A stretch of 64,000 nt of DNA from Escherichia coli (GCF_965641715.1 NZ_OZ282453.1), one strand, 5' to 3'; counted from the first letter of the stretch, positions 61,554 through 62,612 are shown. Program-made: numbers and translations. The notes: generated by a model from the sequence alone, not told the origin.

Positions 61554-62612
61554 TCATCCGTTCTGACTGACTAAATCCTGTACTTCCCTGACCGTCTGCT
61601 CAAAACGCTCAGTCTCCAGCTCAACACCAATCACACGACGTCCCTGCGCCATCGCTGCTTTGACTGTCGAACCTGACCCCATGAAGAAATCTGCAACCAG
61701 GTCTCCCGGACGGCTGCTTGCGCTGATTATCTGCTGCAACATTTCTGCCGGTTTTTCGCACGGGTGCTTCCCGGGATAGTACTGCACCGGTTTATGCGTC
61801 CACACATCGGTGTACGGCACCTGCACAGTCACACCGAAATACCGCCGCAAATTTTTATATTCACTCAGCAGTTCCGTATACTGCCGGTTCAGTTCACTGT
61901 ATGTGCTGACCAGTTGGTAATGTGGCTTTTCCAGTTCTCCGCACTGGTGCTTCTCTTCTGCCACTCGGGCAAACAGTGCCTGTAATTTCAGATAATCGCT
62001 TTCATTCGGTAGCTGCCACTGACTGGCACTGAACCAGTGCGACACCATGTTTTTCTTTCCTGTAGCATCCACAATCTGTTTTGCCGTAATCCCCAGGGCC
62101 GCACGCGCATCACAAAAGTAAGAAATCAGCGGGGCCATCACATGCTGTTTCAGAGCCCTGCCCTTTGCCGCATAGCCATCATTTTTTAGCTGATATGGCC
62201 CCTGATAATGTCCGGCAAACAGAATGCGCTCTGTTGCCGGAAAATACGCCCGCAGGCTTTCCTTGTTGCACCCGTTCCAACGTCCGGACGGCTTCGCCCA
62301 GATGATATGGTTAAGCACGTTGAAACGTTCACGCATCATGATCTCAATATCAGATGCCAGGCGATGTCCACAGAACAGGTAAAGGCTTCCGGCAGGTTTC
62401 AACACCCGCCAGAACTGGGCCAGACAGTGGTCCAGCCACTTAAGGTAACCTTCGTCCCCTTTCCACTGATTGTCCCAGCCGTTGGGTTTCACCTTGAAGT
62501 ACGGCGGATCGGTAACAATCAGGTCAATGGAATCATCAGGCAGGGACTGAATAAAATGCAGGCAATCAGCGTTGATCAAATCAACACTGTTTATTTTTAC
62601 AGTATTTTTCAT
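61554..62612 (-). CDS. orphan DNA methyltransferase (N6-adenine/N4-cytosine family, DPPY motif)
   Basis: 352 aa, motif IV DLIVTDPPY near N-terminus and AdoMet motif FFMGSGSTVKAA near C-terminus (beta-class order); no adjacent restriction gene seen. Confidence 0.85.
   Translation of the reverse strand: MKNTVKINSVDLINADCLHFIQSLPDDSIDLIVTDPPYFKVKPNGWDNQWKGDEGYLKWLDHCLAQFWRVLKPAGSLYLFCGHRLASDIEIMMRERFNVLNHIIWAKPSGRWNGCNKESLRAYFPATERILFAGHYQGPYQLKNDGYAAKGRALKQHVMAPLISYFCDARAALGITAKQIVDATGKKNMVSHWFSASQWQLPNESDYLKLQALFARVAEEKHQCGELEKPHYQLVSTYSELNRQYTELLSEYKNLRRYFGVTVQVPYTDVWTHKPVQYYPGKHPCEKPAEMLQQIISASSRPGDLVADFFMGSGSTVKAAMAQGRRVIGVELETERFEQTVREVQDLVSQNG

Follow-up and report, generated by a model that had tools for sequence, protein, structure and literature searches.

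The window analysed here, i.e. the whole stretch of 64,000 nt from Escherichia coli (GCF_965641715.1, NZ_OZ282453.1), contains a methyltransferase gene at 61554..62612 on the minus strand, and the question is what this gene does and when. A sequence-only reading had described it as an orphan methyltransferase whose target motif could be learnt from a methylome. We consider it probable that the gene is an orthologue of M.EcoGII located in the late operon of a prophage, that it is silent in the lysogen, and that upon induction its product would hypermethylate phage DNA against restriction. The sequence round the gene, about 2.1 kb, matches E. coli EC416 (NZ_AP027404.1; pig faeces, Japan) at 100% identity, and we use the name of this strain for the allele and its prophage. 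All features of the window given below are on the minus strand unless stated otherwise.

The coding sequence (61554..62612) begins with ATG and encodes a protein of 352 amino acids (WP_089564014.1), identified by the open reading frame, the Pfam match and the identity to M.EcoGII. In the Pfam profile search residues 29-340 matched PF01555 (N6_N4_Mtase) at E=2.5e-43 with a score of 149 bits, the cut-off being 26.7, so the reading frame is not a product of chance. Methyltransferase families of PHROG and PADLOC also match the protein (E about 1e-100 to 1e-156). The catalytic motif IV, DPPY, was read from the sequence at residues 35-38 (62499..62510), and the AdoMet-binding motif I, FMGSG (FxGxG), at residues 310-314 (61671..61685). 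D35 is invariant in an alignment of 94 sequences and P36, P37 and Y38 are each at least 90% conserved; F310 and G312 are conserved in the alignments as well. The central region (residues about 135-266; 61815..62209), as delimited by the AlphaFold2 helices, comprises a charged helical linker and a helical, HTH-type TRD. The order is thus DPPY at the N terminus, the TRD in the centre and FxGxG at the C terminus, and some 130 residues separate the core segments. Since the catalytic motif comes first and the AdoMet motif last, the protein belongs to the beta class.

Judged by its sequence, the product is a beta-class N6-adenine methyltransferase of the M.EcoGII family, with predicted activity. The DPPY methyltransferase named in the sequence-only reading is therefore confirmed by motif and profile. 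That reading had also asked for a profile search to choose between the N6A and N4C classes, and the N6_N4_Mtase match of this beta-class protein was assigned to N6-adenine; the concern that catalytic residues might be missing did not materialize, as the catalytic and AdoMet motifs are all intact on alignment. The Pfam search gave no MT-A70 match, and the motif is DPPY, not DPPW.

The AlphaFold2 model, calculated from the 94-sequence alignment with homologues down to 30% identity, has a mean pLDDT of 95 and a pTM of 0.89. It contains the strands of a Rossmann core (3-14, 29-34, 71-81, 97-106, 127-135, 305-308 and 326-331) and an all-helical insertion (helices 147-158, 160-173, 177-184, 190-194, 204-220 and 231-251). 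On a comparison at the level of secondary structure only, helices 147-158 and 231-251 correspond to the linker and the helices at 160-220 to the TRD. The published description of M.EcoGII assigns residues 1-134 and 260-349 to the core and 160-237 to a four-helix HTH domain (PMC11551740, section 24), and the architecture predicted for the EC416 enzyme, i.e. Rossmann core, helical linker and HTH TRD, matches this description.

A Foldseek search against the PDB returned solely beta-class DNA methyltransferases as top matches (E from 2e-18 to 1e-12, 17-23% identity), namely CcrM, M.BceJIV, a rotifer N4C enzyme, MboIIA, RsrI and HpyAVI. The solved enzymes CcrM (6pbd), M.BceJIV (8urk), M.RsrI (1nw8) and M1.MboII (1g60) have the catalytic Rossmann core and the motifs in common with the EC416 protein (Foldseek E=1e-15 to 2e-18; profile matches 1e-35 to 4e-46), whereas the helical TRD and linker are different or absent in them. 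These four are site-specific (GANTC, GTWWAC, GAATTC and GAAGA, respectively), unlike enzymes of the M.EcoGII type.

M.EcoGII and M.EcoGI are enzymes of E. coli O104:H4 C227-11 (Murray et al. 2018, PMC5778455). M.EcoGII methylates adenine whatever the sequence context, up to 99% of dA in vitro, and its substrates also include ssDNA, RNA:DNA hybrids and RNA; the gene is prophage-encoded and its expression slows growth (PMC5778455). The EC416 protein is identical to it at 311 of 349 positions (89%) over the full length, TRD and linker included, where a few of the mismatches may be artefacts, as the M.EcoGII query was OCR-read from Suppl. Table S1 of PMC11551740 (GenBank EGT69837.1). The two single-residue gaps in the alignment are probably OCR artefacts of the published table, and no domain has been gained or lost between the two proteins. 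Both are prophage-borne orphans with the order DPPY-TRD-FxGxG and are of the same length class (352 vs 349 amino acids). The EC416 enzyme departs from M.EcoGII by 38 substitutions, E134G, R167C, R224C and H232Y among them, and its C terminus is 3 residues longer. The enzyme of phage 1720a-02 (AGR48369.1), which was named as a very similar relative of M.EcoGII (PMC5778455), is 90% identical to the EC416 protein, and the methyltransferases of phage 1720a-02 and of the Stx2, Stx2c and cdtI phages range from 85 to 90% identity to it.

Broad specificity appears to be a property of the clade and not of a single enzyme, since the ancestors reconstructed for the clade, SUPREM among them, keep rates on DNA like those of M.EcoGII and are largely non-sequence-specific on RNA (PMC11551740). 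SUPREM and the EC416 protein are 70.6% identical. In methylomes of STEC strains, homologues with a similarity of about 93% were classed as 'nonspecific', with no motif assigned in the lysogen (PMC6602927). By extension from its 89%-identical relative, the EC416 allele would methylate adenine non-specifically. In other words, no motif is to be expected, since the protein is so close to an enzyme that methylates adenine in any context (PMC5778455), and the proposal that a target motif could be read from the methylome is probably wrong.

The competing view, contained in that proposal, is that of a sequence-specific orphan with a definable motif, which would serve against one particular restriction system or in epigenetic regulation. 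We regard it as very unlikely. Public databases do call the protein a 'site-specific DNA-methyltransferase', but this name is generic. M.PflMI, a related enzyme of the same sequence cluster, is indeed site-specific; however, it is without the charged two-helix linker of M.EcoGII (PMC11551740), and this linker is present in the EC416 enzyme. The HTH of the helical TRD could in principle read bases, but the identity to M.EcoGII extends over precisely the TRD and the linker, and the methylomes of the STEC lysogens yielded no motif for the homologues.

The timing of expression is judged here from the position of the gene. The EC416 element is a complete-looking lambdoid prophage with integrase, a LexA-family repressor-like gene, RusA, Q, lysis, terminase, head and tail genes (RefSeq). 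The order on the minus strand is Q (PF06530, outside the window), a cassette slot, a leader with a terminator, a small ORF of 67 amino acids, a spacer of 150 nt, the methyltransferase gene and two tRNA genes. About 950 non-coding nucleotides follow, and then a TerB-family gene, a DUF3927 gene, two holin genes, a GH108 endolysin gene and the structural genes. The synteny from Q through the leader and terminator, the small ORF, the methyltransferase and the optional tRNAs and cargo to the lysis genes is kept in 1720a-02, Stx2a_WGPS2, cdtI, fS25a and PEC422, and a methyltransferase homologue of 64% identity (L008) has the same position between Q and lysis. Beyond the three phages, this gene order recurs in three other E. 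coli genomes. What follows the methyltransferase differs: in Stx phages the stx genes come after the tRNAs, and in the cdtI phage the lysis genes follow directly and the tRNAs are absent. These phages carry stx or cdt or pass directly to the lysis genes, whereas the EC416 cargo slot consists of the non-coding stretch with the TerB-family and DUF3927 genes. From its position the methyltransferase gene is probably second in the late transcript that depends on Q and would be expressed only late.

Upstream of the small ORF, a terminator scan and folding point to a conserved leader (63089..63143) with an intrinsic-terminator-like hairpin and T-run (terminator-like site at 63094-63106). The leader and terminator are near-invariant in EC416, 1720a-02, Stx2a_WGPS2 and cdtI, while the DNA upstream is wholly different, i.e. 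Q itself in 1720a-02 and differing cassettes in the other phages. In the lambdoid scheme the late promoter pR' is constitutively active and its transcript is ended at tR' in the lysogen (PMC7547250). By analogy, the leader of about 55 nt probably represents the short pR' transcript and tR'. The late promoter was not picked out by a sigma-70 consensus scan and is placed by conservation only. By a similar analogy, with StxS, the leader (63089-63143) could give rise to a small RNA in lysogens.

M.EcoGI and M.EcoGII are unexpressed in lysogens (PMC5778455). As the EC416 gene in addition lies behind a terminator in a Q-dependent late operon, probably neither a target motif nor any methylation by this enzyme is to be expected in the lysogen, and comparing the methylome of the lysogen with that of a deletion mutant would most likely reveal no difference.

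The mechanism that we propose is as follows. In the lysogen, transcripts begun at the late promoter would end at the leader terminator and the toxic enzyme would not be made. On induction, Q-modified RNA polymerase would pass the terminator, and the enzyme would be made alongside the lysis and virion or morphogenesis proteins. It would then methylate a sizeable fraction of the adenines of the replicating phage DNA, and in the host DNA too, in any context and before packaging. The DNA of the released phage could thereby be partly resistant, in the next host, to those Type I, II and III systems that are blocked by adenine methylation. Many restriction systems that are sensitive to adenine methylation would be weakened simultaneously by such hypermethylation.

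Protection from host restriction, which the sequence-only reading had put forward together with a modulation of gene expression, is thus retained as the most plausible role, with the qualification that its benefit is what the authors of the M.EcoGII work and a recent review infer. In the literature searched we found no demonstration that the M.EcoGII family hypermethylates virion DNA in natural infection. The Mom protein of phage Mu is a parallel by analogy only: it, too, is not produced in the lysogen, is toxic on expression, acts late and protects broadly against restriction (PMC12707154). However, it is an unrelated protein and makes an acetamido or carbamoyl derivative of adenine, not m6A. 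The EC416 prophage, being apparently complete, is a reasonable system in which to study the role of the enzyme during induction.

As to the orphan status, the neighbours searched were the 67-amino-acid winged-helix ORF, the tRNAs, the DUF6731 protein, a protein of 147 amino acids, Q and the TerB-family protein, and none of these genes has a restriction-endonuclease domain according to the Pfam nuclease domains and PADLOC. There is thus no adjacent cognate endonuclease of the kind that defines a type II restriction-modification system. The enzyme is an orphan in a lambdoid prophage, and on these two counts, the phage orphan and the lack of a neighbouring endonuclease, the initial description was right. 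For a non-specific methyltransferase, a matching endonuclease would in any case serve little purpose. The PHROG families of the 67-amino-acid ORF, the DUF6731 protein and the 147-amino-acid protein carry no function label; that of the TerB-family protein, phrog_632, is labelled 'tellurite resistance'.

The nearest nuclease-like gene, DUF968 (329 amino acids; 23839-24828 in locus L001), is located outside the window, beyond Q in the early operon. Its match to HNHc_6 is sub-threshold (25.2 bits, cut-off 26.6). We note that DUF968 is annotated as an HNH endonuclease in cdtI and WGPS2 and that it accompanies the module of Q and methyltransferase in those loci that reach upstream of Q, including the locus of the 64% homologue.

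Between Q and the late leader there is, on the opposite strand, a two-gene cassette that encodes the DUF6731 protein (313 amino acids) and the protein of 147 amino acids (63246-64000, extending to about 64636; 22047-23435 in L001). It is AT-rich (GC about 0.33). The same slot is filled by a pair of 343 and 179 amino acids in Stx2a_WGPS2, by a porin gene in PEC422 and ETEC1730, and in cdtI and fS25a by the same pair as in EC416, and it is empty in 1720a-02. The slot looks like a hotspot for morons or defence cargo. We asked whether the DUF6731 protein and its 147-amino-acid companion might represent a cognate nuclease or some known defence system and rejected both ideas, as there is neither a Pfam nuclease domain nor a PADLOC match. 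A literature search on DUF6731 found nothing.

On the downstream side, two tRNA genes begin 40 nt after the methyltransferase gene on the same strand, which bears out the earlier remark that the gene adjoins phage tRNAs. The first is a tRNA-Ile (tRNA-Ile2, ileZ type) with the anticodon CAT at 61438..61513 (ARAGORN; Rfam, 72.7 bits; PGAP), and in Stx phages it goes by the name ileZ. The second is a tRNA-Arg (TCT) of the argN/argO type at 61359..61435 (ARAGORN; Rfam, 32.3 bits; PGAP). A third candidate, a tRNA-Arg (TCT) of 92 nt that ARAGORN placed at 59767-59858, is without support from Rfam and PGAP, overlaps the DUF3927 coding sequence and is probably a false positive.

A second alternative is that RNA and not DNA is the main natural substrate, whether mRNA of the host or the phage, rRNA or the neighbouring tRNAs. 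It is true that M.EcoGII acts on ssRNA and RNA:DNA hybrids in vitro (PMC5778455) and that in the EC416 prophage the methyltransferase is co-transcribed with the tRNA genes. However, the initial rate of M.EcoGII is about 100-fold lower on RNA than on DNA (0.12 vs 11.12; Suppl. Table S3, PMC11551740). The adjacency of the tRNAs is not conserved: judging from the loci compared it is incidental and says nothing about the substrate, since the cdtI and L008 relatives have the gene in the same late position without tRNAs. Another methyltransferase of Stx phages does target 16S rRNA (PMC10810198), but it is an unrelated MT-A70 protein with a DPPW motif and is encoded in the early region. We find it very unlikely that RNA is the main substrate.

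For the same reasons we rejected an equivalence of the EC416 enzyme with this 16S rRNA methyltransferase and PNB-2 (PMC10810198). M.EcoPA8orf6770P/PNB-2 resembles the EC416 arrangement in that a phage adenine methyltransferase is preceded by the gene of a small winged-helix protein; it differs in being an MT-A70, DPPW enzyme of the early region (gp5) that is partner-dependent, acts on 16S rRNA and is not homologous (PMC10810198).

The M.EcoGII-type reading further requires that this particular allele be active, and here position 134 deserves attention. E134G is the sole loss among the residues conserved in the deep alignment: Glu occupies this position in 93% of the 83 homologues that are 30-52% identical and, among 118 close cluster representatives, in 111; Gly is seen in 2 other representatives. 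Segments 97-110 and 116-140 are described as fully conserved among M.EcoGII and the ancestors, and 116-140 as the likely dimer interface (PMC11551740). In the EC416 protein both segments are identical save for E134G, residue 98 being N as in Anc291. The substitutions D55G, R167C, H232Y, L323Q and A327V fall on positions that are at least 92% conserved among close relatives. Departures from the consensus of at least 90% number 8, which corresponds to the 90th percentile of the family representatives, the family maximum being 13.

These data could be taken to mean that the allele is catalytically weakened or inactive, i.e. that it is a decaying passenger gene of the prophage. The change at a deeply conserved, putative dimer-interface position and the rank of its eight departures would fit this explanation, as would an insertion sequence at the 5' end of the gene in sister strains. 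Against it, the frame is of full length with all catalytic and AdoMet motifs in place, and the number of departures is within the range of the family. The idea that E134 is a universal beta-class residue was rejected, since MboIIA and CcrM, which are active, have Ser at the equivalent place, and Gly at this position is not private to EC416. The exact protein occurs on 236 contigs, and the Korean pig strain PEC422 has the same allele apart from D55G. Pairwise dN/dS is 0.09-0.13 (about 0.11), and the lineage-specific pN/pS of 0.11, obtained by a parsimony count, is equal to that of four relatives, i.e. the gene is under purifying selection and relaxed selection is not seen. An inactive allele is therefore unlikely, and we keep it as a minor rival owing to E134G.

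The insertion was found in Belgian pig ETEC strains, where ISKox3 (ISL3 family) has replaced the first codons of the gene; in E. coli ETEC1730 (L005) it lies at 2928-4148 and adjoins the methyltransferase at 1855-2916. The ETEC gene is otherwise 99% identical, and ISKox3 parts it from the late leader. As this has happened in related pig strains, loss of the methyltransferase is tolerated.

Immediately ahead of the methyltransferase, and probably first in the late transcript, lies the winged-helix ORF of 67 amino acids (62763..62966; WP_000917723.1 in PGAP). It belongs to phrog_331 (1.8e-25), and some of its 142 homologues are named TrmB, ArsR or IscR regulators. The N terminus MLKQQDMTETA and the third helix, RCQLILTQLVxAGL, are invariant, and the middle and C-terminal segments are mosaic, with two recombining types each. 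AlphaFold2 predicts an H-H-H-E-E winged helix with a pLDDT of 81, and Foldseek gives winged-helix matches (IclR N-terminal domains; Zalpha with a TM of 0.85) that are weak, E being no better than 3e-3.

A conserved spacer of 150 nt (62613..62762; 88% mean column identity over 6 loci) separates this ORF from the methyltransferase. It contains a 14-bp hairpin (62705-62735) in which three one-sided changes leave the pairing intact. The stop codon of the ORF is covered by a further hairpin; this one shows two compensatory pairs and, in 1720a-02 and WGPS2, a T-run, and it may act as another terminator. The spacer has no match in Rfam.

The ORF adjoins the methyltransferase in 7 of 7 E. coli loci examined, and it is tempting to see the winged-helix protein, the structured spacer and the methyltransferase as one functional unit. 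Some prokaryotic winged-helix domains sense m6A. In such a unit the small protein might restrain the enzyme or direct it, for example to replicating phage DNA, or might bind DNA rich in m6A; if true, this would account for the safe use of a toxic, non-specific methyltransferase in natural infection. We give this possibility little credence, because the ORF is absent at the 64% homologue and M.EcoGII is active when cloned alone. An ancient, obligatory pairing is likewise unsupported, the 64% homologue (L008) having the same late position without the ORF upstream. The small genes upstream of a methyltransferase homologue of 44% identity are unrelated to the ORF.

As an M.EcoGII-type gene, the EC416 gene is of an already characterised kind that is very common in E. 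coli prophages, and it offers nothing new in kind. Parts of the locus of about 2.1 kb match 4390 of 5426 complete genomes, and at least 80% of the locus is found in 421. Few candidates for phage counter-defence in E. coli are as widespread as the M.EcoGII gene family. The main value of the present analysis is a correction: the annotation as 'site-specific' invites a hunt for a motif in the methylome of the lysogen, and the evidence points to the probable lack of both a motif and expression there.

Finally, we note some features of the region downstream of the tRNAs. The TerB-family gene (59864-60288; 141 amino acids, phrog_632) and the DUF3927 gene (59715-59867; 50 amino acids) are part of the late operon, between the slot of tRNAs and cargo and the holin genes. 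The stretch at 60410-61358, about 950 nt without a convincing ORF, is where Stx phages hold stx, and its GC content falls to 0.32-0.37. The non-coding sequence of 961 nt from the tRNAs to the TerB-family gene gave zero megablast matches in the phage collection. It includes a tRNA-like fragment, comprising a T-arm and 3' end, at about 60776-60798, which neither ARAGORN nor Rfam called. A strong intrinsic terminator at 60471-60488 is located just upstream of the TerB-family gene.
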